Below, one piece after another: positions 1-21,133 of a stretch of 21,133 bases of DNA. The notes beneath the pieces were generated by a model. It worked only from the letters and a program-made list of their open reading frames with translations, was not told the origin of the DNA and searched no databases. Every line of letters begins with the position of its first letter. Position 1 is the stretch's first letter. The stretch lies in IMG/VR virus record IMGVR_UViG_3300020185_000302; one strand, given 5' to 3'. Source of the stretch: a virus. A program made the translations under genes and the position numbers.

Positions 1-127
1 TTACATGCCAGTCCTGTTGTTCCACTACCCATAAAAGGGTCTAAGACATAGTCCCCTTCCCTTGTAAATAAGGTGATGAGGTAAGACATTAACTTAATAG
101 GTTTAACGGTGGGGTGAATGTTTTTAT
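1..127. repeat. Left copy of an exact 127-bp direct repeat shared by the two window ends (1-127 = 21007-21133). It is interpreted as a circular-closure overlap.
   Basis: Direct reading shows ttacatgccagtcctgttgttccactaccc...ggggtgaatgtttttat at both ends. The repeat lies inside a coding sequence and the frame is continuous across the junction. Confidence 0.95.
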
Positions 128-794
128 TCACTCCTATTTGTTTTTCTTTCTTACTAGGTTTAGGTGTCTGTATTAAGGGATAGGTTCGTTGTATATTCTC
201 TGGTAGTTCCTCAAAATTTAATACCTTATCTATATAAGATTTTTCTTTAAATGGTTTCATCGCCACCACAATAATTTCTCTTGCTGGTTTAGGTTGGAAC
301 CCTAACTTACTACCTTCGTATTTTTGTCCTATATCTGTGTTAGATGAAGTAATATTATAATCAGTTCTAATATCATTATTACCTAATTCTCTAAATCCAG
401 CACCTCCTTTTTTATAATTTTGCCTTTCGTGAGGTTTTACTACTTCTCTTTCCACTCTTAACCTTTTATCTATTGCTTTAGATGTATCACTGGCTTTAGG
501 AAAACCTGTGTGGTATACCCATTCTATATTACTAAAAGATAAGTCAAACCCTACCCCCTCTAAATCCCTACACAACCTCCATAACACATCACTTCGGGGT
601 GCTGCCATTACACAGATAAAAGAACCTTCCTTTAATACTCTATAACTTTCTTTCCATATATCCACATCGGGTAATACTTTATCCCATCCCTTATTCATAA
701 ACGAATAACCATAAGGTGGGTCAGTGCATAACATATCTACACTATTGTCTTGAACCTTCTTTAATTCAATCTTGCTGTCTCCTTGTAAAATCAT
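1..794 (-). CDS. DNA amino-methyltransferase (beta-class, N6-adenine or N4-cytosine type), 5' part. The gene continues across the circular junction to the stop at 20874, giving 927 nt / 308 aa in total.
   Basis: The ATG is at 794-792. Translation reads MILQGDSKIELKKVQDNSVDMLCTDPPYGYSF..., with the DPPY motif IV encoded at 711-722. It continues ...WVYHTGFPKASDTSKAIDK...IIVVAMKP...HPTVKPIKLMSYLITLF. The frame runs open to base 1, and the codon phase matches ORF 20874..21095 once 1-127 is overlaid on 21007-21133. Confidence 0.9.
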   Translation of the reverse strand, partial: MILQGDSKIELKKVQDNSVDMLCTDPPYGYSFMNKGWDKVLPDVDIWKESYRVLKEGSFICVMAAPRSDVLWRLCRDLEGVGFDLSFSNIEWVYHTGFPKASDTSKAIDKRLRVEREVVKPHERQNYKKGGAGFRELGNNDIRTDYNITSSNTDIGQKYEGSKLGFQPKPAREIIVVAMKPFKEKSYIDKVLNFEELPENIQRTYPLIQTPKPSKKEKQIGVNKNIHPTVKPIKLMSYLITLFTREGDYVLDPFMGSGTTGLAC

Positions 795-894
795 TTGTCT
801 TTTCACATATTTCTTTTATTACCTTCCGGTCTTGTTCTGTGTATTGTGCTGAATACCATTCAGGAAATCTATTTGGGTCTATATAATTATCCAT
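766..894 (-). CDS. Possible 42-aa ORF (below the ORF-track size cutoff) that fills the gap between the AT-hook gene and the methyltransferase.
   Basis: My own translation is MDNYIDPNRFPEWYSAQYTEQDRKVIKEICEKTNDFTRRQQD*. Its ATG (894-892) overlaps the upstream stop (ATGGATAA) and its end overlaps the methyltransferase start. I see no homology. Confidence 0.25.
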   Translation of the reverse strand: MDNYIDPNRFPEWYSAQYTEQDRKVIKEICEKTNDFTRRQQD

Positions 895-1132
895 AGTATT
901 TTTTCTTTATTGTATCTATTATGTGTCTATGACACCCCCCACACTTACCTGGTGTTTTATTAGAATTATATACGATATTGTATAATGCATAAACCTTTCC
1001 TAAGTCTTCTCTTGTCTTTCTATTATGATTAAAGAAAAACTCTTGATTATCTTTTACCCATTGTTCTAATACTTCTTGTTCTGTTGGTTGTATTTTTTTT
1101 GGTCTCCCCCTTTTCTTTTTATTGTTTTCCAT
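887..1132 (-). CDS. Small basic protein with an AT-hook-like N-terminus (KKKRGRPKK) and a C-terminal Cys/His cluster (CGGCHRH). Putative DNA-binding protein.
   Basis: It has an ATG start and overlaps the upstream gene by 14 nt. It contains the RGRP core of the AT-hook motif. No other family was recognised. Confidence 0.6.
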   Translation of the reverse strand: MENNKKKRGRPKKIQPTEQEVLEQWVKDNQEFFFNHNRKTREDLGKVYALYNIVYNSNKTPGKCGGCHRHIIDTIKKKYYG

Positions 1133-1721
1133 AATTTTTAAGTATTTTACTTTTTAATATTTTAATTGTTTTATTATCTAATTCTATATTATCTTTGGTT
1201 ACTTTACTATATCTTTCTTTTAATAACTCCAACCCCTCATAATATGATTTAGATACCGTTGTCCGTCCTATATTAAGTCTTCTACCCACTTCACTGAAGT
1301 TTCCTAAGGTAATGTATAACAATATCAACATAACGTAATATCGTTCCTTATTTGAACCTTGATACATATCATCCAAACAATTCATTAATTGTTCTATCTT
1401 ATTGTCTTTATCAATATCATATTCTGTTTCTTGTTGGTCATATATCTCTTCATTGAACTCATAACTATATTTCTTGTATAGTTTATAATGTTGACTATTA
1501 ACACTCCTCGATTGATTTAATGCAACCCTAACAATAAACCATCTCGCCTCATCGTTATTAATCATATATTCAGCTTGTGGGTGTTCCATAAATGTTATGA
1601 GTATCTCATGGAATAAATCATCCCTTACAGAATGGTCTTCATCTTTTAAGATATTTTGTAACCACATCTTAATATTGTTATAGTTTTTATTTATCCACTC
1701 GTCTACCAAAACAATATCCAA
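1119..1721 (-). CDS. ECF-type sigma-70 family factor-like protein (phage-encoded sigma / transcription regulator).
   Basis: A region-2-like segment is present (DDLFHEILITFMEH...ARWFIVRVALNQ). A region-4-like HTH is also present (ERYYVMLILLYITLGNFSEVGRRLNIGRTTVSKSYYEGLELLKERY). The track start at 1721 is a TTG. The first ATG is at 1667 (MWLQNIL...), so the true start is uncertain. Confidence 0.6.
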   Translation of the reverse strand: MDIVLVDEWINKNYNNIKMWLQNILKDEDHSVRDDLFHEILITFMEHPQAEYMINNDEARWFIVRVALNQSRSVNSQHYKLYKKYSYEFNEEIYDQQETEYDIDKDNKIEQLMNCLDDMYQGSNKERYYVMLILLYITLGNFSEVGRRLNIGRTTVSKSYYEGLELLKERYSKVTKDNIELDNKTIKILKSKILKNYGKQ

Positions 1722-1757: not shown

Positions 1758-2171
1758 TTAAGTCCATGTTTTTTTATTTATACAAGACATTATGGTTGAA
1801 GGGTGACAATCATAGTCCTTAGACAACTTATAAGATGATATCTTCTCTTCTTTATACCTTTTCCTTATCGACCTACACACTTCCATAGATAATCGATTAT
1901 AAGACCGTTTACGAACATTTTGTTTTTGTGTAACAAGTTCTAAGTTTTCTAACCTATTATCTGATTTATTCTCATTCATGTGATTAACCTCTAACCCCTT
2001 TGGTATTTTACCATTGTAATATTCATAAATAAATCTATGAACATATTCATTGTATGCTCTACCGTCTTGATAAGGTTTAAACATTATATATCCATCTCTG
2101 TGATTATATAACTTTAGTTTATAATCGTTTTGGTTATATACATTTCCTTTTTCGTCTCCGTAATATTCCAT
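1758..2171 (-). CDS. Free-standing HNH homing-type endonuclease with a C-terminal helix-turn-helix.
   Basis: The motif HRFIYEYYNGKIPKGLEVNHMNENKSDNRLENLELVTQKQN is the classic HNH_3 pattern (H-N-N). The C-terminal segment ISSYKLSKDYDCHPSTIMSCINKKTW looks like an HTH. ATG start. Confidence 0.85.
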   Translation of the reverse strand: MEYYGDEKGNVYNQNDYKLKLYNHRDGYIMFKPYQDGRAYNEYVHRFIYEYYNGKIPKGLEVNHMNENKSDNRLENLELVTQKQNVRKRSYNRLSMEVCRSIRKRYKEEKISSYKLSKDYDCHPSTIMSCINKKTWT

Positions 2172-2230
2172 ATTGTATTTAGTTTATATACTATAAATAC
2201 TTCGTCAATCATCAAACGCCCAATATTGTT

Positions 2231-2262
2231 AAAAAAAAAGAGACCCCACGTTTGGAGTCTCT
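2231..2262 (-). terminator. Intrinsic terminator T2 (minus strand).
   Basis: The minus-strand RNA reads AGAGACUCCA-AACG-UGGGGUCUCU. This is a 10-bp stem including one G.U pair, which would be a C/A mismatch on the plus strand, so the hairpin is strand-specific. It is followed by a run of 8 U. Confidence 0.8.
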
Positions 2263-2291
2263 TCGGTATCATGGGAGGGATGAAGCAATAA

Positions 2292-2324
2292 TAAAACTAT
2301 TTAAACTAAATAACGAGTGTCAAA
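2292..2324 (-). promoter_or_regulatory. Promoter-like element P2 (TTTGACA, 21 nt, TAGTTTTA).
   Basis: On the minus strand, TTTG lies at 2324-2321 (TTGACA at 2323-2318) and TAGTTTTA at 2299-2292. The architecture matches P1 and resembles the Bacteroidota -33 TTTG / -7 TAnnTTTG arrangement. Confidence 0.4.
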
Positions 2325-2380
2325 AAATATAAAAATATAACCTCCTAACCAATACTATATATAATAATAAAAAAATTGTT

Positions 2381-2408
2381 AAAAAGAAAGGGAGGTTTTA
2401 CCCTCCCC
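2381..2408 (-). terminator. Intrinsic terminator T1 (minus strand), 6 nt after the stop of the 78-aa gene.
   Basis: The minus-strand RNA reads GGGAGG-GUAAAA-CCUCCC followed by UUUCUUUUUAACAAUUUUUUU. The stem pairs 2390-2395 with 2402-2407. Confidence 0.8.
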
Positions 2409-2413
2409 ATCTA

Positions 2414-2650
2414 TTAGTCAACTAATTCTCTGTATAACCATGGACTACCTTCTCCATTCCAACGACTAAGGTCTATCATCTTATTATCCACATCTTCCCA
2501 AAACCTATTTACCATATCCGCATGTATCTCATCCTGTCTAACCACTCTACCTCTCTTAGGGACATTTGGTAATGTTATGGTAGTTGACCCTACCTTTTGT
2601 TGTTTTAACTCCTGCATTCTACGGAATGCTTCTTTTCTTAAATTACTCAT
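2414..2650 (-). CDS. 78-aa protein of unknown function with a basic helical N-terminus (MSNLRKEAFRRMQELKQQK) and a Trp/acidic C-terminus.
   Basis: The track ORF (2414..2710, 98 aa) starts at a TTG that is itself the TTG of the promoter TTGACA box. The first ATG is at 2650. The gene is flanked by promoter P1 and terminator T1. Confidence 0.7.
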   Translation of the reverse strand: MSNLRKEAFRRMQELKQQKVGSTTITLPNVPKRGRVVRQDEIHADMVNRFWEDVDNKMIDLSRWNGEGSPWLYRELVD

Positions 2651-2679
2651 TTTGTTTATAGTTTTTAGTTTTATTACTA

Positions 2680-2715
2680 TAAATATATGAAAAAAAAGAA
2701 AAGTTGTCAAATATA
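2680..2715 (-). promoter_or_regulatory. Promoter P1.
   Basis: On the minus strand, TTGACA (2710-2705) is followed by exactly 17 nt and then TATATT (2687-2682). Read in the Bacteroidota style, this is TTTG, 20 nt, TATATTTA (2687-2680). An exact TAnnTTTG match (TATATTTG, 2715-2708) overlaps the -35 box. A T/A tract lies immediately upstream. Confidence 0.55.
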
Positions 2716-2734
2716 ATAAATATTTTTTTTTAAC

Positions 2735-2761
2735 TATTCAAGCTTCGGCAAAACTTGAATA
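2735..2761. other. Perfect 8-bp inverted repeat (tattcaag / cttgaata) with an 11-nt loop.
   Basis: Bases 2735-2742 pair with 2754-2761. On the plus strand a T9 run precedes the hairpin, so on the minus-strand RNA no U tract follows it. It is therefore not a canonical minus-strand terminator. Confidence 0.4.
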
Positions 2762-2798
2762 TATTTATTAACAACGAGTGGACAAGTGAGTATAGTGA

Positions 2799-2838
2799 AG
2801 ACACCTTTCTCTCCCCATGAACGATAGATTTAATATTA
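2799..2838. repeat. Copy A of an imperfect ~34-40-nt direct repeat (agacacctttct-ctcccc-atgaa-cgatagat-ttaatatta).
   Basis: The 12-nt core agacacctttct and cgatagat are both identical to copy B at 2935-2968. The flanks match at 7 of 9 positions, and the copies differ by one 6-nt indel. Confidence 0.6.
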
Positions 2839-2903
2839 GCGCCTTAGTCGGTTGGATACTTCAGTTGTAATAGCCTGTTTGGAACAGATAACTTACCTCT
2901 TAC

Positions 2904-2914
2904 AGAGAGGTGTC
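2904..2914. repeat. Inverted copy (agagaggtgtc) of the repeat core. It can pair with either direct-repeat core.
   Basis: Bases 2904-2914 pair with 2936-2946 over 11 bp (one G.T) with a 21-nt loop. They can alternatively pair with 2800-2810. They also overlap a competing local hairpin, acctct-tacag-agaggt (2895-2911). Confidence 0.5.
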
Positions 2915-2934
2915 GTTTCTTGCCTACTTCTTTG

Positions 2935-2968
2935 AGACACCTTTCTATTCCCGATAGATATTATATTA
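2935..2968. repeat. Copy B of the direct repeat (agacacctttct-attccc-gatagat-attatatta). It overlaps the stop codon of the 62-aa ORF.
   Basis: See copy A. The two copies start 136 bp apart. Confidence 0.6.
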
Positions 2969-3149
2969 TATCTCTATCAGTATCTAGTCTCTTATGTCTT
3001 TTGATAAATTGCTCATGAATATTTTTACTAATATCATATCCAATGTTAGATAAGAAATTACGTGTATCTATCCAATCTTGTTCTGTTATATTCTTTTCTC
3101 TATATAAGAACCAAGGTAAAATTGCTTTGTTATTCTTTTTAACACCCAT
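2961..3149 (-). CDS. 62-aa hypothetical protein, the last gene of the long operon.
   Basis: It has an ATG start coupled by TAATG to the upstream stop at 3149. No homology was recognised. Confidence 0.55.
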   Translation of the reverse strand: MGVKKNNKAILPWFLYREKNITEQDWIDTRNFLSNIGYDISKNIHEQFIKRHKRLDTDRDII

Positions 3150-3682
3150 TATATTTCAGGATAACAATTATTCCGTTTAGGTATGTATAACCCCTGAAAG
3201 TAAGGATTAGTCTTATTAGGTAACATACCTTCCGTACCAGGGTTAAGATATAAAGGAAAGTATGACTCATTATCTATAATGTATTCTCTTGTTCTCTCAA
3301 GGTAAAACTGAGCTGTATCTAATATAGATTGTCTTACATACTTTATACTTGTTAGGTCAACAACAGAACTCTCTTCACTTGTAGGGGTCATAATAGCTTT
3401 ATTCTTTATCTTATAGTTCAACGATGGGAAAGCCAAATATACGGCATAATTTGCTAATGCCGGAGCAATATAATCATCTAATAATGTTTCAGTATAACCA
3501 CTAACTGTATTGTTAGATATTTCTGTCTTTATTTGTTGATAAAACTTTGTGCCTAATACATCTTGAATGTATATGTCCTGAGCCTGTTGAACAAAGGGTG
3601 TTAACTCCTGTGGTTCAACGTTATCATGGATAGCTGTTAATTTCTTTAATCTTGCTTCTGATATAAATAATACGTAACTCAT
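3149..3682 (-). CDS. Putative head-tail adaptor / head completion protein.
   Basis: It lies immediately after the portal gene with an ATGA overlap. Its size (177 aa) and helical N-terminal pattern (ISEARLKKLTAIHDNVEPQELTPFVQQAQDIYIQDVLG) are reminiscent of gp6-like connector proteins. The assignment is weak. Confidence 0.45.
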   Translation of the reverse strand: MSYVLFISEARLKKLTAIHDNVEPQELTPFVQQAQDIYIQDVLGTKFYQQIKTEISNNTVSGYTETLLDDYIAPALANYAVYLAFPSLNYKIKNKAIMTPTSEESSVVDLTSIKYVRQSILDTAQFYLERTREYIIDNESYFPLYLNPGTEGMLPNKTNPYFQGLYIPKRNNCYPEI

Positions 3683-4776
3683 TCTTCTATAACTATTTTT
3701 TGAAAGTCTAATGTTGATGGTATAACTCTAATTGATACATTAATACCCATACCCCTTAATATCTTTTCAAGGTTCTTATTAACAACCTTTTGTTTTGGTT
3801 CAATAACTGATGCCATAAAGTGTACATAGGCAACTTGCATCTCGGCGGAATTATTCCCTAGACCACTTGCTCCCTCAACTGTTAGACCAACCAATCGTGG
3901 TGAAGCTATTCTATGGGCTGATAAGATACGACTTGTTATACGGGTTTCTAAGACAACGTAATAGTCATCGTTAGCACTATCTACCGTAGATATCTGTGGA
4001 GCTAAATCTTGACCCTCTGAGAACGTTAGGAAGAGTTTACCTGCGTTATGTTCAGATGAGAATGCTTCATTTAAATCATTATGTAAAGTTCTCATTTCTT
4101 CAGGTGATGGTTCCCCATTTGGAAAGTTAATGATTAGACCTGGTGTCATACCATTAGATAAATTAGAATTATGGAAAATACTAATACGACCATCCAACTG
4201 TATATCGTTTACTGCACCTATATAATCAGGTAGGGGATACAAATCAACACCTGGTGAGTATTGGTAACAATAATAGATTTGACTTGCACTATCACCCTTT
4301 GTATTCGTTTTATCGTATATAGGATATTCAACGGGTTTATACTTTCTTGTGTTAGCCCAATTAGAACTGTAGTAGTAATGTGTAACCTCATCTTCTTCGT
4401 TTATCTTACCTGACCTTACTTTGTCAAATGGTAGATGGTATATCTCAGCAATCTTATCACCCCCTTTACTCCATATAACATTTAAACTAAAACCTCCATA
4501 CAATAGGAAGTCATAAGAAATCTTTCTATAAATGTCTTCTAATGTTTCATCTTCACGGTTTACAAAATCATCACCAATTAAAGCGATACCTTCACCTATC
4601 ATTGCATCTAACTGTGCATTAATACATGTATTATGTATTGCTGAAGTCTGTTGTAATTCAATTAATTTTTGAGGGTATAGGTTATCAGCACCATAACTGA
4701 CCCAATCCTTACCTCTTACTTCTGAGAATACAGGTAAATCTAATGCCTGTAAATTAACTATCTCTATATTTTTCAT
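3679..4776 (-). CDS. Portal protein (HK97-family-like, compact at 365 aa).
   Basis: The C-terminal half reads ...GMTPGLIINFPNGEPSPEEMRTLHNDLNEAFSSEHNAGKLFLTFSEGQDLAPQISTV...DYYVVLETRITSRILSAHRIASPRLVGL. This matches the conserved portal wing/stem/clip pattern. Confidence 0.8.
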   Translation of the reverse strand: MKNIEIVNLQALDLPVFSEVRGKDWVSYGADNLYPQKLIELQQTSAIHNTCINAQLDAMIGEGIALIGDDFVNREDETLEDIYRKISYDFLLYGGFSLNVIWSKGGDKIAEIYHLPFDKVRSGKINEEDEVTHYYYSSNWANTRKYKPVEYPIYDKTNTKGDSASQIYYCYQYSPGVDLYPLPDYIGAVNDIQLDGRISIFHNSNLSNGMTPGLIINFPNGEPSPEEMRTLHNDLNEAFSSEHNAGKLFLTFSEGQDLAPQISTVDSANDDYYVVLETRITSRILSAHRIASPRLVGLTVEGASGLGNNSAEMQVAYVHFMASVIEPKQKVVNKNLEKILRGMGINVSIRVIPSTLDFQKIVIEE

Positions 4777-5234
4777 TGTCTATAATATATATATTCTGCA
4801 CCATCTTCTTGAACACGGGTGCCTTTATTACTTACATCTATGGTATCACTCCAATCATTTATAACTTTACATAATGTTGTAACAAGAGGTTTCGTAAATA
4901 TAGGAAATAAATTAGTACCTCTTAATTCTAAATTATAATACCCCTCTAAATCTTCTTTACCATATTCGCTTGGAAGTACTCCACCAACCCCATTATAATC
5001 GTTTCTATCCCAACTAAAACTAATGTAGTTATCGTTATCATCAACCTTAGTTAGTCTAATATAAAATAATTGACTATCCCATCCATCACTATATAACGGA
5101 GTAATATTAGTTAAGTAATTATTAGAATATTTGCTTTTAAAGAATAAATAATATTGTTCTTGTTCGTAATCTACACTACTACTACCCTTCCTAAAAACAA
5201 GGTTTCTACTGTCATCTGCAAAGTTAAATATCAT
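4773..5234 (-). CDS. 153-aa hypothetical virion-module protein.
   Basis: ATG start and ATGA coupling to the portal gene. It is the first gene after terminator T3. No homology was recognised. Confidence 0.65.
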   Translation of the reverse strand: MIFNFADDSRNLVFRKGSSSVDYEQEQYYLFFKSKYSNNYLTNITPLYSDGWDSQLFYIRLTKVDDNDNYISFSWDRNDYNGVGGVLPSEYGKEDLEGYYNLELRGTNLFPIFTKPLVTTLCKVINDWSDTIDVSNKGTRVQEDGAEYIYYRQ

Positions 5235-5256
5235 TCGTGCATTGTTTTTACACCCT

Positions 5257-5264
5257 TAAATATA
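5257..5264 (-). promoter_or_regulatory. TATATTTA box 22 nt upstream of the 153-aa gene ATG. Candidate restart promoter after T3.
   Basis: The same octamer occurs at P1 and upstream of the scaffold and TerS-like genes. CTTG lies 18 nt upstream. Confidence 0.3.
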
Positions 5265-5285
5265 ATAAATGCATTATCTGCGCAA

Positions 5286-5311
5286 GAAAAAGGGGAACAA
5301 CTACGTTCCCC
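5286..5311 (-). terminator. Intrinsic terminator T3 after the putative tail tube gene.
   Basis: The minus-strand RNA reads GGGGAAC-GUAGUU-GUUCCCC followed by UUUUUCUU. The stem pairs 5292-5298 with 5305-5311. It lies 26 nt after the stop at 5338. Confidence 0.8.
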
Positions 5312-5337
5312 CATTTCACTATATATAGGAATCTGAA

Positions 5338-5871: not shown

Positions 5872-5901
5872 ATTATTTAATTTTTAAGTAGTTTATTGTT
5901 A

Positions 5902-6795: not shown

Positions 6796-6807
6796 AATTA
6801 TTGTTTT

Positions 6808-7383: not shown

Positions 7384-7414
7384 TTTTTTAAGAATTTATT
7401 TGTTTATTTGGTTT

Positions 7415-7422: not shown

Positions 7423-7428
7423 AAAACG

Positions 7429-14920: not shown

Positions 14921-16221
14921 GTTATTCTTATTCTCATATTACCCGCATTTTGATACATACCGCCTAAGGGTACGCCCCCTGCTGCTGCAGCTATGTCATT
15001 AGCAAAGTTTAAGTTAGCGTAGTCATTCAATATAATACCATCAAACGCTTCCAATGTCTCTACATAGGTTGTGTAACTACTAACACCTGTTCTTCCACTA
15101 CAACCTAACATAATGGTACTATCAGTTCCACCAGTTATTTGTGAGGACTCAGAACCTATAATAACAGCTTTATTACTTTCGTTACCACTTTGTCCGTTAA
15201 TTTCACTATTTGAACTTAACATAATACCGTGTAAACCACCAACAATATTAGCAGTTCCCGAACCGTTGGTTTGTCTTACAAATGTATTATTTGAGTATAT
15301 TATTATAGAACCCTTGTCTGGATTAGTACCACTACCACTCTGACCATAGGCATATGTTCCCCATCCACCGATAATTGTTGTAGAATTCTTTGCTTCTGTG
15401 AATTCACTAGACATAACTAATGCGTCCTTTCCGTTTGCGAAATTATCTCTACCTCCAACAACAACAGCATGGCTACCATTAGTACTATTATTCTGACCAC
15501 CTAGTATTACGTTCCATTGTCCGCTAACATTATTAGTATTACCACCTATTATTCCTGAGTTAGCACCAGTAATAATATGATTAGTACCACCACCAATAAA
15601 TGACCTTCCTCCACTAACGTTGTGAGCATATCCACCAACTATAGCATTTTGGTCACCACTATTAATATCATTACCCGCACCAGCAAATACTCCATTATAA
15701 TTACCTCCCTTAACTTCACTTGTAAAACTAGTACCAGCAAGAATATTACCATATCCAGCACCTGAAATTTCACCCATACCTATTAAAATATTCCAGTAAC
15801 CATTATCTATTACACCTTGTAGTGTTCCCATTAATAAGTTACCACCTGTAGAGTTAGTAGATGATATTTTAGAGTTACTGTGTCCAGCAAATGCTCTATT
15901 ATTAGGGTGGTCTGTTATTGTAGTATTACCCTGTACCAAATTAAAAGTTTCATTTGCGTTAGAAACAAATACTTCACCTTCAATATTTAGTTTATCTATA
16001 TAAGTAGTACTACCCGATACACCTCTACTTGTTGGTGAGTATCCAGGAACTATACTATCTGTTGCGTCCCCTACCTGAAACGCTCCACCACCAACACCTG
16101 ATAAGAGTGTTGATAACTTTATTTTACTTGTTGTTGTCTCCCCACTATCGACAATGGCTAACAAATCATTATCTGTTATGCCAGTCTGTAGGGGAAGCTG
16201 TGGGATTGTTTTATTAGCCAT
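14917..16221 (-). CDS. Tail fibre protein with a Gly/Asn-rich repetitive beta-helix-like core.
   Basis: The N-terminus ANKTIPQLPLQTGITDNDLLAIVDSGETTTSKIKLSTLL is the common fibre attachment motif. Roughly aa 140-275 repeat a GGxxNxxSG-type unit (IVGGYAHNVSGG, FIGGGTNHIITGANSG, IIGGNTNNVSGQ, ILGGQNNSTNGS, VVGGRDNFANGK). The C-terminus reads NFANDIAAAAGGVPLGGMYQNAGNMRIRIT. Confidence 0.7.
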   Translation of the reverse strand: MANKTIPQLPLQTGITDNDLLAIVDSGETTTSKIKLSTLLSGVGGGAFQVGDATDSIVPGYSPTSRGVSGSTTYIDKLNIEGEVFVSNANETFNLVQGNTTITDHPNNRAFAGHSNSKISSTNSTGGNLLMGTLQGVIDNGYWNILIGMGEISGAGYGNILAGTSFTSEVKGGNYNGVFAGAGNDINSGDQNAIVGGYAHNVSGGRSFIGGGTNHIITGANSGIIGGNTNNVSGQWNVILGGQNNSTNGSHAVVVGGRDNFANGKDALVMSSEFTEAKNSTTIIGGWGTYAYGQSGSGTNPDKGSIIIYSNNTFVRQTNGSGTANIVGGLHGIMLSSNSEINGQSGNESNKAVIIGSESSQITGGTDSTIMLGCSGRTGVSSYTTYVETLEAFDGIILNDYANLNFANDIAAAAGGVPLGGMYQNAGNMRIRIT

Positions 16222-16230
16222 TTTTATTTA

Positions 16231-16533
16231 TTAATTTAAATCTACTATCACAACTGAATAACCTCTAGCTTCCAATTGTGTTTTTATGAATTCGTTTGAG
16301 AATAGTAGTATATCACTACCGTCAACCGTTCTGTCGTATGGTGCGTATGCTGGAAATCCATCTAATTCAACTTGAGGTGCTCCACTATCATACGCTTCTT
16401 TATTTGAGTAGAATGATGGTGAACATATTACCTTGTCACCATCTACTACTAAATTTGCTTCAGTTCTACCATATAATGATGGTACTGCTATACCTGATGG
16501 TAAAACTATGTTACCTGTTACTTCTAATGCCAT
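16231..16533 (-). CDS. 100-aa hypothetical protein.
   Basis: ATG start and compact placement between two structural genes. No homology was recognised. Confidence 0.55.
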   Translation of the reverse strand: MALEVTGNIVLPSGIAVPSLYGRTEANLVVDGDKVICSPSFYSNKEAYDSGAPQVELDGFPAYAPYDRTVDGSDILLFSNEFIKTQLEARGYSVVIVDLN

Positions 16534-16564
16534 TTTGTTTTTGTTTTTATTTTAATTTATTTGT

Positions 16565-18403
16565 TTATAAGGGGAACCAATCTATAAAGTCCCCACCTTG
16601 AGTTATTATTAAGTCACCATTCTGTGCTTCTATGTGATAGAATATAGGTGATGGTGTTGGAGTCGGAGTAGTAGTCTGAGTAGGTGTTGGTGTTACAGTC
16701 GGAGTTACAGTAGTTGTTGGTGTTACAGTATTAGTTGGTGTAACAGTTATTGATGGGGTAGCCGTAATAGAAGGTGTAGCTGTAACCGATGGGGTTACGG
16801 TAGAAGTTACACTCGGAGTTACCGTTGGTGTCGTAGTATTTGTAGGGGTCGGTGTTGGAGTTGCACATACACCATAAACTATACTATCACCTGCAGTGTT
16901 CGATATTGGTACAAGATATCCACAATTACCTTCAACGGGGAATAAACCACCCTGACCACCAGTACTCCATGTAGCACTGTTAGTTGCACTTACTCCACAA
17001 CTTATATCTTTAGCTGTACCACCTGTATCATATAGTAATCCAAAGAATGCATATTCAAATCCACCACTAACTGCATTTGCAAATACTTTTCTGTTATTCT
17101 TATTAACCCATAAGGTTTGACTTGTATAACCAGTACATACTATTGTATTAGTTGCAATTTCTGAGAAGTTAGATATTAATTCATATTCACCGTTTACATC
17201 CCATGAGTTACCTGCACCATCTTGTACTAAGTTATCCCCTGCACCTCCACCTGCTGTTAATGTTAAGCAATCGGTAGGTTCAACGAAACAACTCGGTGTT
17301 GGTGTAATAGTCGGAGTAATGGTAGGTGTTACAGTATTTGTTGGAGTTATACTTGGAGTCGGTGTTGGACTTGGTGCTATAGGACTTGGAGTCACAGTTG
17401 TTGTCGGTGTGACAGTTGGGGTAGGAGTATTAGATGGTGGTGGTACAGGTGCCGCAGTTGGAATAGGTTTAGGGTCAGTACAATCAGTTTTAAAGATATA
17501 TACATTACCCGTTCTATCTTCACTATTGTTAGGGTCAAATGTTTTTATCCACCCCTCAGTTGGTAATATCCATCCATTATCATTTGTTGTTGGTGCGTAT
17601 GATACAGCATTGGTAACAGAATTAAAGAGTGAACCTTGTTTAGCTCCACATTCAAATGTAGTTCCATCAACAGAATACCAATTATAATAACCACTTAAAT
17701 TATTAATAGGACTATTAGGGTAACCTGTATCAAAATAAGACATTATTGGATAAACAGGGTCGCTACCAGATAACTTAACTTCAGTACTAATATAATATCC
17801 ATACCTTGTATCACATATCCATTTAAAGTAATCTACTTCACTAGTTGAATATTCATCTTCTACATACTTCCAATAACCCCATCCACCAAACTTATAGGTG
17901 GTATTATATTGGTCTACATTGGTTTTATTATAATCTCTTGCAACTAAACAATAATTAGGGTCGGCTATAGGTGCACTACATGCATCCATTATAGTTGGGT
18001 AGGTTACAGTTATATTACAACTTGCACCTACCACATCATCTTGAAATCGTTCTTTAAAGGGGGTAAAGGTAAACGGTTGTTGTATCTCTACTAATGGGTC
18101 AATCAATGTGTTGTTAACACGTCCGATAAGGTCTCTTAGGTTATCGATACAATCTGATTGATTTCTAATTACACTTTCTTCATCATCGTTAGACTGAGTC
18201 ATACAGATGAGGTTAAATGTAAAGGTGCTGACTCTATCCCCACCGGTAACACTTATGGGGTTTATAAAGACATATGGATAGTATGGTGACTTCTCATTAT
18301 CAGGGGTTGATATATCAGATATATCACCATAACCAAACTCATTAATAAAAAAGTGTCCTTGAGCTTTTTGTTTAAATATGTCTATTATTTCTTTGTAAGT
18401 CAT
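16565..18403 (-). CDS. Modular 612-aa virion-module protein. It comprises an N-terminal domain, Pro/Thr linker 1, a Cys-rich module, Pro/Thr linker 2 and a short C-terminal peptide.
   Basis: ATG at 18403. Linker 1 covers aa 311-371 and linker 2 covers aa 514-586. The middle module (aa 372-513) has six Cys. The first ~140 aa (YYPYVFINPISVT...FTFNLICMTQ...SDCIDNLRDLIG) faintly resemble tail-terminator/completion proteins. That resemblance is a weak impression only. Confidence 0.7.
   Translation of the reverse strand: MTYKEIIDIFKQKAQGHFFINEFGYGDISDISTPDNEKSPYYPYVFINPISVTGGDRVSTFTFNLICMTQSNDDEESVIRNQSDCIDNLRDLIGRVNNTLIDPLVEIQQPFTFTPFKERFQDDVVGASCNITVTYPTIMDACSAPIADPNYCLVARDYNKTNVDQYNTTYKFGGWGYWKYVEDEYSTSEVDYFKWICDTRYGYYISTEVKLSGSDPVYPIMSYFDTGYPNSPINNLSGYYNWYSVDGTTFECGAKQGSLFNSVTNAVSYAPTTNDNGWILPTEGWIKTFDPNNSEDRTGNVYIFKTDCTDPKPIPTAAPVPPPSNTPTPTVTPTTTVTPSPIAPSPTPTPSITPTNTVTPTITPTITPTPSCFVEPTDCLTLTAGGGAGDNLVQDGAGNSWDVNGEYELISNFSEIATNTIVCTGYTSQTLWVNKNNRKVFANAVSGGFEYAFFGLLYDTGGTAKDISCGVSATNSATWSTGGQGGLFPVEGNCGYLVPISNTAGDSIVYGVCATPTPTPTNTTTPTVTPSVTSTVTPSVTATPSITATPSITVTPTNTVTPTTTVTPTVTPTPTQTTTPTPTPSPIFYHIEAQNGDLIITQGGDFIDWFPL
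16646..16864 (-). repeat. Low-complexity coding repeat (Pro/Thr/Val/Ser linker 2).
   Basis: It encodes TPTPTPTNTTTPTVTPSVTSTVTPSVTATPSITATPSITVTPTNTVTPTTTVTPTVTPTPTQTTTPTPTPSP. The DNA is a degenerate ACN-CCN/GTN periodic repeat. Confidence 0.85.
17291..17473 (-). repeat. Low-complexity coding repeat (Pro/Thr linker 1).
   Basis: It encodes PKPIPTAAPVPPPSNTPTPTVTPTTTVTPSPIAPSPTPTPSITPTNTVTPTITPTITPTPS. Confidence 0.85.
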
Positions 18404-19079
18404 TCTTCTTTAATTGTTCTTGCTCTTTCTCCATTTTATCTTTGTTCCATGCTAACCAATTAAACGCGGATATTAATGGTTTATCAGTAACCTTATCTAT
18501 ATATAAAAACTTCCCTTCTGCAAGAGTTAGTATGATGTCATACCATATTCTTTTTATATCTACAGTGGTTGTATCTTTTTCTACTTTGAGGTATTCTCCG
18601 TCTTCGTCTGTACCAAATAAGTTAGTGTAATTCTTATATAGATTGTTCCTGTAATCAATGAATGTATTTATACCACCCCATACTCCACTTATCTTAACCT
18701 CATCGGTAACATCAATACCCCATAGTGTTTCTATCAGTTTATCTATACCTTTGTTGATACCATCAGATAGGTATACTTCCAAATCTATAAACTTACCTAA
18801 GGTGAGTCCGTTTAGATTGATGTAGTCACCCCCCATATAATCTTTGTTTAGTTTACTATCTTGTGGATATAACATCACACTGATAAAAGCTATAAGTAAT
18901 TCAACGGTCTTATCAGGTATTATATCAACCTCATCGTAGTCAATCTTAAATGCTACTGATATAATCTTCTTATGGTTGAAGGGGATTGATATATCGTATT
19001 TGGTTATCTCTTTCCAATGACTTATTGTGAAGTCCTCAGGTAATTGATATTCTGTATCTTTGATAACTAAACTATACAT
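18372..19079 (-). CDS. 235-aa hypothetical protein directly downstream of the large terminase.
   Basis: ATG start. It overlaps the next gene by 32 nt. No family was recognised. Confidence 0.6.
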   Translation of the reverse strand: MYSLVIKDTEYQLPEDFTISHWKEITKYDISIPFNHKKIISVAFKIDYDEVDIIPDKTVELLIAFISVMLYPQDSKLNKDYMGGDYINLNGLTLGKFIDLEVYLSDGINKGIDKLIETLWGIDVTDEVKISGVWGGINTFIDYRNNLYKNYTNLFGTDEDGEYLKVEKDTTTVDIKRIWYDIILTLAEGKFLYIDKVTDKPLISAFNWLAWNKDKMEKEQEQLKKNDLQRNNRHI

Positions 19080-19092
19080 GTAATTAAATATA

Positions 19093-20319
19093 TTATTTTA
19101 TCCAACTGTAACTCCCCTTTTTCCTCATTGTCTTTCTTGCGTAGTTAGCTATCGCTAATGACATAACACAGTCATCATGTAACCCCTGAGGTGAACCATA
19201 CTTTACGGCTCTTGTCTTTTGTGAATACTCATAAGTGAATGATTGTAATTCGTTATATAAAGGACCAAATAACTTCTGTGAAGGTATGGATATGTTCCCT
19301 TCGTTAAAGTCCAATATCAACCCCTCTATTATCTCCTGTTTGGATTTATTTGTTGTAACGAAGGGGTCAGTCTTATTGTATCTTTTCTTTACCTGTTCAT
19401 AGATTACATCACCTATACTATTTGCTTCAATCAATACATGACAATTACTTTCTTTAGCTAAGTCGACAATATCATTGATGATGAAGTTCCACTCCTGTTG
19501 TCTTGCTCTATACATCTCTATTACCTGACCTTCCTTATCCATTAATGTACATACGGTAAAGTCTTCTTGTCTACCTAAGTCAACACCCATATATATTGTC
19601 CCTTGTGATATGGGGTAATGGTCAAAGGTTTTTATATTACTAAATACAGTTCCTCCCCCCTCAATGAAGTCAGCTAAATACTCTTGTTTGTAGATATTCT
19701 CAGGTAGTGTCTTTCTACTATCTTCTATCTCCTTAAGGTCTGCGTATGGATTGTCCATTGAGGTTCCCTTATAACTTTTATACTCTTCGTGAGCATCGGA
19801 TAGTCCCATCTGATATAATCTATAGAACCAGTTCTTACCCTTAGGGGTTGATAAGAATAGACACTTCTTTCCCCTTACTAATAACGTAGGTTTTATTGCT
19901 TCGTTGAATGCCTCTTCTTTTATGAATGCAGCCTCATCAATAATACAGTAATCAACAGTGTAACCCCTTATGTTGTCATATCGTTCTGCACTTCTGAAGA
20001 TTATTTCACTCCCGTTCTTTAGGGTTATTATGTTCTCACTGTAATTACATTGGTCTACAATACCGGTATCTACAATGGACTTGAATAGTTCCTTCTGTAC
20101 TTTGGTGGTTTGACTATAAACGGGTGAGACCCATAAGATGGTCGTAAGGGGATTATTAATAGACCAGTCAAGGACTAAGTTCATTGCTAGTAAACTCTTT
20201 CCTGATTGTCTTCCTATTGCAACTACGTGATACTTATGAGGACTCCGTATCCCCTGTATAATTTCCTGTTGCTTCTTCGTCGGGGTTATCCCTATCAGTT
20301 GTTGGTTCTCCAAAATCAA
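19093..20319 (-). CDS. terL: Terminase large subunit.
   Basis: The ATPase motifs are Walker A AIGRQSGKS, Walker B DYCIIDEAAF and coupling motif LSTPKG. The nuclease acidic motifs are MGVDLGRQEDF, LIEANSIGD and GLHDDCVMS. There is no in-frame ATG before Walker A, and the track start is TTG (20319-20317). Confidence 0.9.
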   Translation of the reverse strand: MILENQQLIGITPTKKQQEIIQGIRSPHKYHVVAIGRQSGKSLLAMNLVLDWSINNPLTTILWVSPVYSQTTKVQKELFKSIVDTGIVDQCNYSENIITLKNGSEIIFRSAERYDNIRGYTVDYCIIDEAAFIKEEAFNEAIKPTLLVRGKKCLFLSTPKGKNWFYRLYQMGLSDAHEEYKSYKGTSMDNPYADLKEIEDSRKTLPENIYKQEYLADFIEGGGTVFSNIKTFDHYPISQGTIYMGVDLGRQEDFTVCTLMDKEGQVIEMYRARQQEWNFIINDIVDLAKESNCHVLIEANSIGDVIYEQVKKRYNKTDPFVTTNKSKQEIIEGLILDFNEGNISIPSQKLFGPLYNELQSFTYEYSQKTRAVKYGSPQGLHDDCVMSLAIANYARKTMRKKGSYSWIK

Positions 20320-20584
20320 ATACTACTTTTCTTAATGGTTTATCCTCTCCTCCTGAGAGTTCTGTTCTTTGTAGTTTAGGAAGTATAAAGTCTGAGTATC
20401 TTTCTACAATTGATAATGCTTTCTCAGGGTTTTCTTTTGCAACTTGCTTTAACCACTTCTGAATGTCAGGTAACGATGACTCTATCAGAGCTTGGAATGC
20501 AAGTCTAATCTCTTCTGTGGTTTTGTTTACTGACCCCTTCTTACGTCCTTTGGGGTTTCCTGATTGTCCTTTCTTAAATGGCAT
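20234..20584 (-). CDS. DUF5681-type protein, putative terminase small subunit.
   Basis: The N-terminal FKKGQSGNPKGRKKGSVNK motif is characteristic of DUF5681 phage proteins found upstream of terL. ATG start. The 3' end overlaps terL by 86 nt. Confidence 0.65.
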   Translation of the reverse strand: MPFKKGQSGNPKGRKKGSVNKTTEEIRLAFQALIESSLPDIQKWLKQVAKENPEKALSIVERYSDFILPKLQRTELSGGEDKPLRKVVFDFGEPTTDRDNPDEEATGNYTGDTESS

Positions 20585-20602
20585 TACTGGTAATTGTTGT
20601 TA

Positions 20603-20887
20603 TCAATAAATATAATTTTCTAATAGGTTGTCAAACCAGGCGTCTATATTGTAGTATTTACTATTACTAACACTACCATCATTTAACATATCATCACTAA
20701 CCAATAGATTAGCGGGGAACCTACCTTTAGTATCTCCATATATTTTAGTTTTATTATGTAGATTAAATATACTATTACCATTACCTCCATAACCATTACC
20801 ATATTTCTCAATATGCTCTTTTAACCCGTCATCTACAAATGGTATTCTACAATCGTCAAACCAACTTATACCTTTAGAATAATTCAC
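20603..20887 (-). CDS. 94-aa ORF encoding a methyltransferase-family middle module that the adjacent methyltransferase lacks.
   Basis: The sequence reads GISWFDDCRIPF...KGRFPANLLVSDD...SKYYNIDAWF. It matches the NIDxCRI / GRWPxNV / RFF segment normally embedded in this methyltransferase family. The start is GTG at 20887, 14 nt inside the methyltransferase 3' end. There is no ATG start. Confidence 0.55.
   Translation of the reverse strand: MNYSKGISWFDDCRIPFVDDGLKEHIEKYGNGYGGNGNSIFNLHNKTKIYGDTKGRFPANLLVSDDMLNDGSVSNSKYYNIDAWFDNLLENYIY
20607..20635 (-). promoter_or_regulatory. Promoter-like element P3 upstream of the packaging/structural operon (TTTGACA, then TATATTTA).
   Basis: On the minus strand, TTTGACA lies at 20635-20629 and TATATTTA at 20614-20607. 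There are 17 nt between TTTG and the box, and the box is 22 nt from the TerS-like ATG. The spacing is shorter than in P1 and P2. Confidence 0.3.
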
Positions 20888-21133
20888 CTTGAAGTTTTAT
20901 CTTTAATGTTTTTATCAGTTCCTCTTTTGTAACCTCCAATCTTTCTTTTGCTATTTCAACATACTCCTCCGTAAAATCTATACCTATAAACTCCCTGTTT
21001 AATAACTTACATGCCAGTCCTGTTGTTCCACTACCCATAAAAGGGTCTAAGACATAGTCCCCTTCCCTTGTAAATAAGGTGATGAGGTAAGACATTAACT
21101 TAATAGGTTTAACGGTGGGGTGAATGTTTTTAT
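20874..21133 (-). CDS. DNA methyltransferase, 3' part (continuation of 794..1 across the circular junction). It is open at the window end.
   Basis: It encodes ...NIHPTVKPIKLMSYLITLFTREGDYVLDPFMGSGTTGLACKLLNREFIGIDFTEEYVEIAKERL...*. The AdoMet-binding motif I DPFMGSGTT is at 21021-21047. The track ORF 20874..21095 starts at an internal Met. Confidence 0.9.
   Translation of the reverse strand, partial: KNIHPTVKPIKLMSYLITLFTREGDYVLDPFMGSGTTGLACKLLNREFIGIDFTEEYVEIAKERLEVTKEELIKTLKIKLQGELF
21007..21133. repeat. Right copy of the 127-bp terminal overlap.
   Basis: It is identical to 1-127 by direct comparison. Confidence 0.95.

Follow-up and report, generated by a model that had tools for sequence, protein, structure and literature searches.

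A closed ~21.0-kb genome of a siphovirus-like phage, probably from a marine flavobacterial host, with a holin and no recognisable replication or endolysin gene

IMG/VR virus record IMGVR_UViG_3300020185_000302 is a stretch of viral DNA of 21,133 nucleotides, which was analysed at its full length and is called the window here. The window is a complete, closed genome of ~21.0 kb, circular or circularly permuted, and unidirectional. It codes for a full virion set of a tailed phage, a few small regulatory or DNA-interacting proteins, and a holin. No recognisable gene for replication, integration, or peptidoglycan degradation was found in it. These absences had been described in an initial annotation made from the letters alone; they survived sensitive searching, save that the holin is now found. 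The explanation that we prefer, with a probability of roughly 0.6, is that the window represents, in full, the genome of a minimal siphovirus-like phage of marine Flavobacteriaceae that is autonomous and probably strictly lytic, and that would replicate and be released by the mechanism proposed below.

Genome Closure and Organization

The first 127 nt of the window are identical to its last 127 nt, which leaves 21,006 bp of unique sequence with 35% G+C.

1..127 = 21007..21133, no strand: terminal overlap, exact 127-nt repeat; the junction is read through by independent contigs

We take the overlap to be a trace left by a de Bruijn assembler with k = 127 on a circular path. As such, it indicates that the genome is circular or circularly permuted, and does not define its physical ends. 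An open reading frame (ORF) for an N6/N4 DNA methyltransferase runs uninterrupted across the junction. Three near-identical ENA contigs (L143-L145; 20,932, 19,910, and 21,045 bp) cross it with the methyltransferase intact and the gene order unchanged, and the IMG/VR contig L005 (20,966 bp) has the same gene cycle and ends elsewhere. Altogether, four independent assemblies cross the junction, with breakpoints different from those of the window. The sister genome L140, which has the same gene set and ~77% nucleotide identity over ~85% of the length, closes independently: its 30-nt terminal overlap gives a genome of 20,968 bp, and its ends are spanned by identical sequence from another sample and sequencing run. 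The closed, unidirectional ~21.0-kb genome of the initial annotation is thus upheld by the 127-nt overlap, by the independent contigs across the junction, and by the closure of L140.

All supported genes (~26) lie on the minus strand, with a coding density of 95.5%, and every plus-strand ORF is embedded antisense within a homology-supported gene. The packaging and virion block (20584..3149) occupies 17.4 kb, or 83% of the genome, which agrees with the earlier view that most of the coding capacity serves these functions; the remaining ~3.6 kb is non-structural. The gene leaders are A/T-rich, there are no Shine-Dalgarno motifs before the genes, and several intergenic spacers have a G+C content of 0-13%. 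Such leaders are expected for Bacteroidota.

Search for Replication, Integration, and Lysogeny Genes

The ORFs of the window were used to scan three libraries of profile hidden Markov models (HMMs): Pfam, PHROGs, and NCBIfam. No family of polymerase, primase, helicase, initiator, recombinase, integrase, or repressor was matched by any ORF, and NCBIfam gave nothing for the residual unassigned ORFs. Sequence-profile searches of the PDB with the 465-aa, 703-aa, 177-aa, and 150-aa proteins, the product of ORF B, the capsid candidate, and the 612-aa protein returned nothing useful. Two structure predictions followed by fold searches (18372..19079 and 12874..14271) revealed no replication or muralytic fold. 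When the window was searched in all six frames for homologues of proteins from the cultured Nonlabens siphophage P12024S (endolysin, holin, Erf, exonuclease, SSB, primase, and helicase), none were found. Profile HMM, PDB profile, and fold searches therefore agree with the first reading that no replication, integration, repressor, or muralytic gene is recognisable. The ORFs that stay without assignment are either small (56-177 aa) or, in the case of the 612-aa protein, variable and binding-module-like.

The genome has no tRNAs, Rfam families, or att-like feature, and no integrated copy was found in 185,579 species-representative genomes. A temperate phage or prophage was rejected since there is no integrase, recombinase, or repressor family, no integrated copy, and no tRNA or att-like feature. 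A phage-plasmid was rejected as well, because no plasmid match was obtained. A satellite, of the phage-inducible chromosomal island (PICI), cf-PICI, or P4-like kind, or a gene transfer agent (GTA) would show the opposite pattern: the window has a full virion set, no integrase or replication genes, and is a free circle, not chromosomal.

These results, together with the closure, bear on the proposal that the window is not an independent virus, being a GTA-like or defective prophage cluster, a phage-plasmid, or a chimeric or misassembled circle. Its structural-gene-only content does resemble GTA clusters, and the 127-nt overlap, taken alone, is an assembler artefact. However, the same circle is present in at least five independent assemblies with different breakpoints, there is neither an integrated copy in the species-representative genomes nor plasmid similarity, and the HMM scans revealed no partition or Rep genes. 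The element also has its own TerS, TerL, HNH, sigma-like, and methyltransferase genes, and is abundant in viral-fraction collections (IMG/VR). We regard this proposal as very improbable.

Lysis Genes

Two small membrane proteins are relevant to lysis.

14723..14920, minus strand: holin, 65 aa, transmembrane segment at ~29-59 by hydropathy; Pfam Phage_holin_10 (PF23987, Pam3 gp28 family), E = 3.6e-16
7429..7599, minus strand: 56-aa single-pass membrane protein by hydropathy, between the protease and scaffold genes

The holin scores 59 bits against PF23987, for which the cut-off is 27 bits, and a holin of the same family is found at the same position in L140 and L143-L145. It had been missed at first, and its presence means that lysis genes are not entirely lacking; the earlier statement on muralytic enzymes stood up, as no lysozyme, amidase, peptidase, or transglycosylase was detected in any ORF with the three HMM libraries. 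Of a canonical holin-endolysin(-spanin) system, the genome has the holin and not a recognisable muralytic endolysin.

Several places for a concealed lysin were considered and rejected. The ORF directly after the holin gene (14271..14723), which is the classical position of an endolysin, codes for an HK97-gp10-like protein. The product of 12874..14271 has a tail-tube fold and Ig domains, with no muralytic fold. In the case of the 703-aa protein, 201 homologues carry adhesin-type additions only. The search was extended to 91 accessory proteins of relatives, in which no endolysin family was found, while the M15 enzyme of P12024S, used as a control, was detected. What is unusual in these findings is that, throughout a clade of phages of a Gram-negative host, no endolysin is recognisable.

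Membrane ORFs of 56-57 aa occupy the position equivalent to 7429..7599 across L138-L145 (L138:13254-13427; L139:10664-10837; L140:15184-15354), so that the protein is conserved clade-wide. The 56-aa protein has no family matches and is possibly a second lysis or holin-type factor. The interval between the protease and scaffold genes is an odd site for a membrane protein.

Relatives and Probable Host

No nucleotide match to a deposited phage (megablast) or plasmid was found. The nearest cultured relatives are the Nonlabens siphophages P12024S and P12024L (35.7 kb), the portal protein being 26% identical. In IMG/VR, 68 related loci were identified. Homologues of three window proteins (27-99% identity) lie on contigs of which the longest are ~19.5-26 kb, with one 38-kb outlier. 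The divergent relatives L138 (21,623 bp) and L139 (21,189 bp) share this backbone and likewise gave no match to a replication or lysin family. We conclude that small genomes with no recognisable lysin are characteristic of this large, uncultivated clade and not accidents of the window contig.

The 91 accessory proteins of relatives contain sporadic VapE/DUF5906, DnaB_C, RepL, HTH_36, and ParB_N families. The region that is minimal here holds accessory modules in larger relatives (20-32-kb contigs). VapE/DUF5906 helicase-primase-type proteins are encoded at L034:15697-16947 and L064:14228-15715. The segment L063:14945-19267 contains ParB_N, methyltransferase, glycosyltransferase, and QueD/PTPS genes, which suggests DNA hypermodification. 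A GIY-YIG homing-endonuclease-like gene (L138:17208-17714) lies between the portal and DUF6712 genes of the 21.6-kb relative, which comes from an NCBI metagenome-assembled genome (MAG).

A rival reading is dependence on a helper: the window could be a satellite-like 'virion-only' phage that makes particles of its own but needs co-infection by a larger relative for DNA replication and lysis, for example, by a 24-36-kb group 1 phage (the group is described below) with VapE, primase, helicase, and M15 lysin. The replication and lysin genes missing here are present in larger related phages, and relatives co-occur in the same metagenome bins. Known satellites, however, are built in the opposite way, as they keep integrase and replication genes and lose virion genes. 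Moreover, a 21-kb architecture that is very widespread and stable over 27-99% protein identity is hard to reconcile with obligate co-infection. No cis sites shared with larger relatives were found, the element has its own regulatory, holin, and packaging genes, and cultured actinobacterial phages of similar content form plaques alone (PMC7302621). We consider dependence on a helper quite unlikely.

The broader group has already been recognised as 'Flavobacteriaceae EVG group 1', built around P12024S and P12024L (Nishimura 2017, PMC5332604; Tominaga 2020, PMC7198788). Its published subclades have genomes of 27.5-50.5 kb with conserved replication genes (PMC5332604, PMC7198788), and no description of ~21-kb, replication-gene-free members of group 1 was found in the literature. 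The window has homologues of the portal (phmmer, gp06, E = 3.8e-39) and of the prohead protease (gp01, E = 1e-29) and an affinity to Bacteroidetes, which assigns it to group 1 by gene homology and not by the published proteomic tree. On this basis, we place the window as a deep, uncultivated branch of the group 1 radiation. The novelty suggested earlier is narrowed, since the broader group was known (PMC5332604); genus-level similarity to Inhavirus is lacking, and we found no account of the ~21-kb members.

The host is probably a member of marine Flavobacteriaceae. This prediction is based on the Nonlabens-infecting relative, the binning with a MAG, the SprB and DUF285 modules in homologues of the 703-aa protein, the lack of Shine-Dalgarno motifs, and the published prediction for group 1 (PMC5332604, PMC7198788). 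The species-genome collection contained relatives in two forms only: 24-kb stand-alone contigs, which had been binned with a Flavobacteriaceae MAG, and short fragments.

Non-Coding Block and Candidate Origin

Between ORFs A and B, two small ORFs of the non-structural region, lies a non-coding region of 250-313 nt with a conserved block.

2745..2960, minus strand: conserved non-coding block, ~215 nt; AGAAAGGTGTCT present twice in direct and once in inverted orientation
2961..3149, minus strand: ORF A, 62 aa, basic; orientation varies among relatives
2414..2650, minus strand: ORF B, 78 aa, basic, isoelectric point (pI) 9.3; invariant C-terminal motif MIDLSRW.GEGS

The block is 85% identical in L005 and 77% identical in L024, whereas the flanking ORF A shows 40-49% amino acid identity; it is thus more conserved than the small ORFs at its sides. 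Eight copies were collected: the window, L005:11287-11495, L024:6250-6460, L011:12506-12719, L013:8330-8551, L116, L125, and L140:20463-20671. Its orientation is constant while A and B flip among relatives, and in most relatives that have it the block stands directly upstream of the HNH gene and the early operon. Other close relatives have in its place an unrelated, equally conserved sequence, which we call type II. In the predicted consensus structure of the block, 91.6% of cells are paired, compared with ~45% in slid controls, and eight pairs show double-sided changes; these counts come from seven distinct sequences, the same ones from which the structure was derived. The minimum free energy (MFE) folding z-score of the block was not significant, and no Rfam match was obtained. 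AGAAAGGTGTCT was found nowhere else in the genome; a role as a genome-wide phage promoter was therefore rejected.

We could identify no promoter upstream of the block. The Bacteroidota -33/-7 composite promoter gave no match; the -7 motif alone is not enriched, with one occurrence near the block. A sigma-70 promoter scan was uninformative (77 sites versus 86 expected). The block is a candidate transcript-primed origin or structured leader RNA. By analogy with phage c2 (see below), a transcript-primed origin is the best available hypothesis, and it is put forward as such and not as a finding.

ORF B has no PDB or NCBIfam match and is followed by two terminators (2408..2389 and 2264..2237). In all relatives examined, it is on the opposite strand. 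Among L003-L024, ORFs A and B (2414..3149 in the window) occur in at least four arrangements of order and orientation relative to the portal gene: A+B+ in the window, A-B- in most relatives, and B-A+ or B-A- in others. The window has the only A/B arrangement seen with all genes on one strand. Copies of A and B are merely 40-78% identical, which indicates old rearrangements in a variable early region rather than active inversion. An invertible segment of the shufflon type was set aside on account of this identity, the lack of long inverted repeats, and the lack of a recombinase.

Other Non-Structural Genes

The other non-structural genes are listed below.

1758..2171, minus strand: HNH endonuclease, 137 aa; Pfam HNH_3 E = 1.2e-19, phrog_59 E = 9e-27
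1119..1721, minus strand: sigma-factor-like protein (tentative), 200 aa; phrog_1740 E = 1.9e-5
887..1132, minus strand: AT-hook (GRP) protein, 81 aa, basic, pI 9.7; C-terminal CxxCHxH motif
1..794, minus strand: N6/N4 DNA methyltransferase, N-terminal part; Pfam N6_N4_Mtase E = 2.4e-33; continues at 21006..20874, total 308-312 aa
20874..21133, minus strand: methyltransferase, C-terminal part; 21007..21133 duplicate 1..127
20603..20887, minus strand: 94-aa acidic ORF between the methyltransferase and TerS genes, accessory; co-occurs with the methyltransferase gene in L143

These genes, together with the 78-aa product of ORF B, make up the small non-structural set that had been listed from the first reading (HNH, sigma-like, AT-hook, methyltransferase, 78-aa basic protein). 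The HNH gene has a fixed position in close relatives, with 45-57% identity at that locus. A HEARO-like RNA upstream of it was rejected, because there is no Rfam match and the HNH protein is a 137-aa HNH_3 protein and not IscB. In the case of the sigma-like protein, the family profile matched region 4 of SigW with E = 0.014, and a member of its 90% cluster bears the JGI name 'specialized sigma subunit'. Homology with gp33 of P12024S was rejected, as the hhalign result was not significant. The AT-hook protein has no family matches; its gene sits between the sigma-like and TerS genes across the clade and is kept in distant relatives.

The methyltransferase gene is missing from L005 and L140 and is intact in the independent contigs L143-L145. 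The 94-aa ORF has no family matches in the three HMM libraries. Together, they form an accessory cassette (1..806 plus 20603..21006). At the cassette site, L005 (12958-13212) and L140 (1166-1420) have an unrelated 84-aa ORF, and L018 and L143-L145 have the methyltransferase.

Packaging and Head Genes

The genes of packaging and head functions are as follows.

20234..20584, minus strand: TerS-like protein, 116 aa, DUF5681 (Pfam E = 1.7e-8); directly upstream of TerL, kept in relatives
19093..20319, minus strand: TerL, 408 aa; Terminase_6N E = 8.6e-19, Terminase_6C E = 6.5e-5, phrog_2 E = 5e-50
18372..19079, minus strand: conserved 235-aa helical protein of the packaging/structural block; AlphaFold2 (AF2) predicted local distance difference test (pLDDT) 83; uncharacterised phage protein relatives in BFVD
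7599..8969, minus strand: 456-aa fusion with a C-terminal XkdF-type prohead serine protease; Peptidase_S78_2 E = 3.7e-21, head-maturation-protease PHROGs
6808..7383, minus strand: scaffold-like protein, 191 aa, acidic, pI 4.3; called by position between the protease and capsid genes, conserved
5902..6795, minus strand: major capsid candidate, 297 aa; position and synteny, phrog_11320, also the family of P12024S gp02
5338..5871, minus strand: 177-aa abundant structural protein candidate; phrog_19091, homologous to P12024S gp03 and gp09
4773..5234, minus strand: 153-aa ORF upstream of the portal gene; 120-150-aa ORFs there in relatives, gp05 there in P12024S
3679..4776, minus strand: portal, 365 aa; phrog_11226 E = 1e-40, Pfam Phage_portal E = 2e-9, 26% identity to the P12024S portal
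3149..3682, minus strand: DUF6712 protein, 177 aa; Pfam E = 1.3e-24, homologue of P12024S gp08

TerL contains both the ATPase domain and the RNaseH-like nuclease domain of Caudoviricetes terminases, and its identity to the TerL of any cultured phage is at most 29%. The gene starts with TTG and overlaps the TerS gene by 86 nt. Automated calls on near-identical public contigs place the start 45 codons later (363 aa), which deletes the Walker A motif GRQSGKS; therefore, TerL must start at the TTG. The Pfam Phage_portal match of 3679..4776 (37.4 bits) is slightly below the 39.1-bit cut-off.

The AF2 model of the 235-aa protein has no PDB fold match, and its Foldseek matches in BFVD are uncharacterised phage proteins, among them I6R9M9 of P12024S (175 aa). 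The length of I6R9M9 fits gp38, the gene after the TerL gene of P12024S. Members of the 235-aa family were found on contigs of at most 22 kb only. A hidden replication protein at 18372..19079 was rejected on the basis of the confident model, the lack of a PDB match, and the BFVD relatives, including I6R9M9.

The N-terminal ~300 aa of the 456-aa fusion are akin to the C-terminal extension of the P12024S portal; phmmer matched the fusion to gp01 (E = 1e-29) and gp06 (E = 1.5e-9), and phrog_33693 matched at positions 443-506. This is a case of domain shuffling: the C-terminal extension of the 560-aa portal of P12024S sits here on the N-terminus of the XkdF protease, and the portal here has 365 aa. 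The products of the protease gene range from 392 to 689 aa in relatives.

The scaffold-like protein has no family match. There is moderate support for the product of 5902..6795 as a major capsid protein candidate: gp02 of P12024S, a member of the same family, gave a weak match to the major-head family phrog_10 (E = 6e-4), and the PDB profile search was negative. The product of 5338..5871 is a candidate tail tube or head decoration protein, and its gene is followed by a strong terminator (5312..5291). ORF 4773..5234, which has no family matches in the three libraries, probably codes for a head or connector protein, by position. The DUF6712 protein, conserved directly after the portal, is probably a head-tail connector.

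Tail and Receptor-Binding Genes

The tail genes are listed below.

16565..18403, minus strand: 612-aa modular protein; conserved N-terminal ~150 aa and variable modules on Pro/Thr-rich linkers
16231..16533, minus strand: 100-aa ORF beside the fibre gene; same adjacency in relatives; corresponds to P12024S gp11 (99 aa) by position and size only
14917..16221, minus strand: 434-aa Gly-rich beta-roll protein; Pfam LbR_Ice_bind E = 4.8e-7, N-terminus common to the fibre-position proteins of relatives
14271..14723, minus strand: 150-aa HK97-gp10-like tail/connector component; hhalign probability 92.6%, E = 4.5e-7 to the L056 positional homologue
12874..14271, minus strand: 465-aa tail-tube-fold protein with Ig-like domains; AF2 pLDDT 86, predicted template-modelling score (pTM) 0.83, Foldseek probability 1.0
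10763..12874, minus strand: 703-aa tail-tip/receptor-binding platform; the family includes relatives of P12024S gp45
8966..10744, minus strand: 592-aa tape-measure-like protein; four tape-measure protein (TMP) PHROGs, E = 5e-14 to 2.5e-10; homologous to P12024S gp49, E = 7.5e-23

Foldseek matched the model of the 465-aa protein to the SPP1 tail tube, the monocin tube, the GTA neck protein, and the baseplate tube-like proteins of phiCD508 and E217; it is predicted to be either a tube or a distal tail protein. No Pfam domain was found in the TMP-like protein, and no tail sheath family in the Pfam and PHROGs scans of the window ORFs. Siphovirus morphology has been reported for the distant cultured relative P12024S (PMC7198788, PMC8776804). 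The siphovirus-like call of the initial annotation is strengthened by the tail-tube fold of 12874..14271, the TMP PHROGs, the lack of a sheath family, and the cultured siphovirus relative (PMC7198788, PMC8776804). With a tube fold, a TMP, and no sheath, the gene content predicts a siphovirus morphotype. Some individual gene calls had to be corrected: the portal is encoded at 3679..4776, the product of 7599..8969 is the protease fusion, and the tail-tube fold belongs to 12874..14271.

The positional homologue of the 150-aa protein in L056 passes the Pfam HK97-gp10_like cut-off (24.5 versus 21.4 bits). Longer homologues of the 703-aa protein gain DUF285, SprB-repeat, or C1q modules, and none of the 201 homologues has a lysin domain. 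Many of them (among P0174-P0273) reach 950-1,200 aa through DUF285 (BspA-like), SprB-repeat, or C1q modules. Such additions fit a modular exchange of receptor-binding domains and a Bacteroidota host range. The 434-aa beta-roll protein is a candidate fibre or receptor-binding protein, and the neighbouring ORF 16231..16533, with no family matches in the three libraries, is possibly a fibre assembly factor.

The 612-aa protein is a probable tail or receptor-binding protein. Its relatives range from 149 to 718 aa with a conserved N-terminal domain; phrog_15511 matches the linker region only, and no Pfam, NCBIfam, PDB, or phage matches were found. The three independent assemblies of near-identical genomes (L143-L145) all break within this gene, which has two long Pro/Thr-rich linkers. 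The breaks suggest that repeats made the assembly fail, or that a host-recognition protein is hypervariable within the population.

Comparison with Known Phages

P12024S and P12024L (genus Inhavirus) share with the window homologous portal, XkdF-type protease, capsid candidate, 177-aa, DUF6712, and TMP-like proteins. In addition, gp45 of P12024S matches the 703-aa homologues of relatives, and I6R9M9 gives the Foldseek match to the 235-aa protein. A sigma-like gene upstream of the terminase, a similar G+C content, and a marine Flavobacteriaceae setting are also common to both. In contrast, the portals are 26% identical, there is no nucleotide similarity, and the TerL proteins are unrelated. Between its fibre and sigma genes, P12024S (35.7 kb) has an M15 endolysin, a different holin, Erf, exonuclease, SSB, VirE-primase, helicase, and VRR-NUC, whereas the window has just two small ORFs, the non-coding block, and the HNH gene at that interval. 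With phmmer, six structural genes of P12024S and its methyltransferase gene were found to have homologues in the window, and no others. Membership in Inhavirus was rejected, as there is no megablast match, the portal identity is 26%, and few genes are shared. For the larger ORFs of unknown function, a structural or packaging role emerged, and they have counterparts in P12024S, a phage with lysin and replication genes of its own. Among the ORFs that the initial annotation had singled out for inspection, 18372..19079 and 12874..14271 turned out to belong to the structural and packaging modules, and 4773..5234 and 16231..16533 are still without a family and have P12024S ORFs of similar size (gp05 and gp11).

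Minimal siphoviruses of 14.2-17.5 kb are known from Actinobacteria: Microbacterium EE (17.0-17.5 kb), Arthrobacter AN/AX/FE, Gordonia CW/DM, and Rhodococcus RRH1 (14.2 kb) (PMC7302621). Besides the virion genes, these phages have a non-structural arm of ~4 kb with regulators and an HNH nuclease, and genes for replication are missing (PMC7302621). Therefore, the small size and the missing replication genes, first taken as unusual, are not unprecedented (PMC7302621). The window resembles these lytic phages in that it consists mostly of virion genes, has HNH and regulators, and lacks polymerase, primase, helicase, integrase, and repressor; with 21.0 kb and a 3.6-kb arm of HNH, sigma-like, AT-hook, and methyltransferase genes, it falls into the same small-genome type. 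Unlike the window, they infect Gram-positive hosts of high G+C, have defined cohesive ends, and possess a recognisable lysis cassette with an endolysin, where the window has the holin only. Their protease, scaffold, and capsid form one fusion gene; the genes are separate in the window, in which the protease is fused to a portal-extension-like domain. We detected no relationship in sequence and view the resemblance as analogy rather than homology.

The second comparison is with the lactococcal c2-type phages (Ceduovirus, ~22 kb), in which the non-coding origin lies by the early genes and exists in three mutually unrelated conserved types (PMC7150918). It yields a non-coding transcript with a defined structure, and plasmids can replicate from it when no phage protein is supplied (PMC7150918). 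A phage that lacks replication genes would need a mechanism of this kind. Both the c2-type phages and the window are siphoviruses, or siphovirus-like, of ~21-22 kb with a non-coding region adjoining early genes that comes in discrete, unrelated, internally conserved types. They differ in that Ceduoviruses encode Erf, SSB, and DNA-polymerase-like early proteins, and in that their early and late blocks are divergent, in contrast to the co-directional blocks here. There is no sequence similarity, and origin function is ascribed to the block of the window by analogy only.

Proposed Mechanism and Its Alternatives

For an autonomous phage with this gene content, we propose the following course. Host RNA polymerase would transcribe a short early unit from the AT-rich non-coding region 2172..2960, which in this strain would comprise the HNH nuclease, the sigma-like factor, the AT-hook protein, and the methyltransferase. 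The sigma-like factor would then redirect the host core polymerase to the long structural operon. All DNA synthesis would be done by the host replisome from a non-coding origin in the 2172..2960 region; the likeliest site would be the ~215-nt block, transcript-primed as in c2-type phages and possibly helped by the small basic proteins. TerS and TerL would package concatemers, and the conserved HNH nuclease probably assists the terminase, as suggested by the known HNH-terminase partnership and by the retention of HNH in other minimal siphoviruses (PMC7302621). Release would need the holin and a peptidoglycan-degrading activity, which may come from a novel, unrecognised phage protein or from a host autolysin.

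Several observations weigh against this reading. A tailed phage of a Gram-negative host that has a holin and no endolysin would be very unusual, which speaks for a lysin that has escaped recognition. A novel initiator or lysin may lie in ORFs A and B, the AT-hook, 153-aa, 100-aa, 177-aa, and 56-aa ORFs, or the central domains of the 612-aa protein. Some relatives carry VapE/DUF5906, DnaB_C, or RepL-type genes, so that dependence on the host is not uniform in the wider group. The block is missing from some close relatives, its folding z-score is not significant, and it could serve as a regulatory leader or consist of operators rather than act as an origin. Evidence for the sigma factor is weak (E = 2e-5 for the PHROG, E = 0.014 for SigW, and no significant hhalign result with the sigma-like protein of P12024S). 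Four parts of the model are inferred: the origin, the promoters, what the sigma-like protein does, and the link between HNH and terminase.

Hence, the genome might be autonomous and encode a novel endolysin, a small initiator or replisome recruiter, or both, among the unassigned ORFs, the apparent absence reflecting the limits of the profile libraries. The candidates would be the small ORFs listed in the preceding paragraph and the central modules of the 612-aa protein. The genome has a holin, a kind of protein that usually acts together with a lysin. None of the 91 accessory proteins of relatives is a recognisable endolysin either, which points to an unrecognised family peculiar to the clade more than to repeated loss. 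ORF B, with its invariant C-terminal motif, adjoins the conserved block, the AT-hook protein is conserved clade-wide, and about one third of the ORFs have no family assignment. On the other hand, nothing was found with the three HMM libraries, the PDB profiles, or the six-frame searches. Those of the unassigned ORFs that exceed 100 aa lie among structural genes, several of them having P12024S ORFs of similar size (by position only). The other lineage-specific ORFs (56-98 aa) are too small for a polymerase, a helicase, or a canonical lysin, though not for a recruiter or an amurin-type protein. We regard such hidden genes as possible but on balance doubtful, and prefer the autonomous phage that relies on the host replisome. 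The earlier conclusion that the phage would have to rely on host functions, a helper, or unrecognised genes stands.

A wider interpretation is that there is a global clade of ~21-kb flavobacterial siphophages without replication proteins or a canonical endolysin, which would use a swappable RNA origin (2745..2960 or type II) and the host replisome, and would lyse the cell with the holin and either a new small lysis protein or a host autolysin. Taken with all its parts, we consider it speculative and rather unlikely.

Biological Significance

Flavobacteriaceae are foremost among the degraders of carbon from algal blooms, and most of their abundant phages are uncultured. What is new here is a minimal siphophage lineage for a Gram-negative marine host, an unusual combination of a holin with no recognisable endolysin, and a candidate non-coding origin. 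The genome and its many ~21-kb relatives define a minimal gene set for such a host, consisting of ~17 kb of virion and packaging genes and a few small regulators. Annotation pipelines would score such genomes as incomplete, since they have no replication or lysis hallmarks, and they place the start of TerL wrongly.

If the preferred reading is true, the way in which a tailed phage starts replication without its own initiator becomes testable, and the ~215-nt candidate origin could serve as a replicon for marine Bacteroidota, which are genetically difficult. Lysis without a recognisable endolysin would point to a new lysin, an amurin-type family, or dependence on a host autolysin. The group would also offer a case of gain and loss of replication modules within one radiation, in which the 24-36-kb relatives carry VapE, DnaB, RepL, or primase modules.

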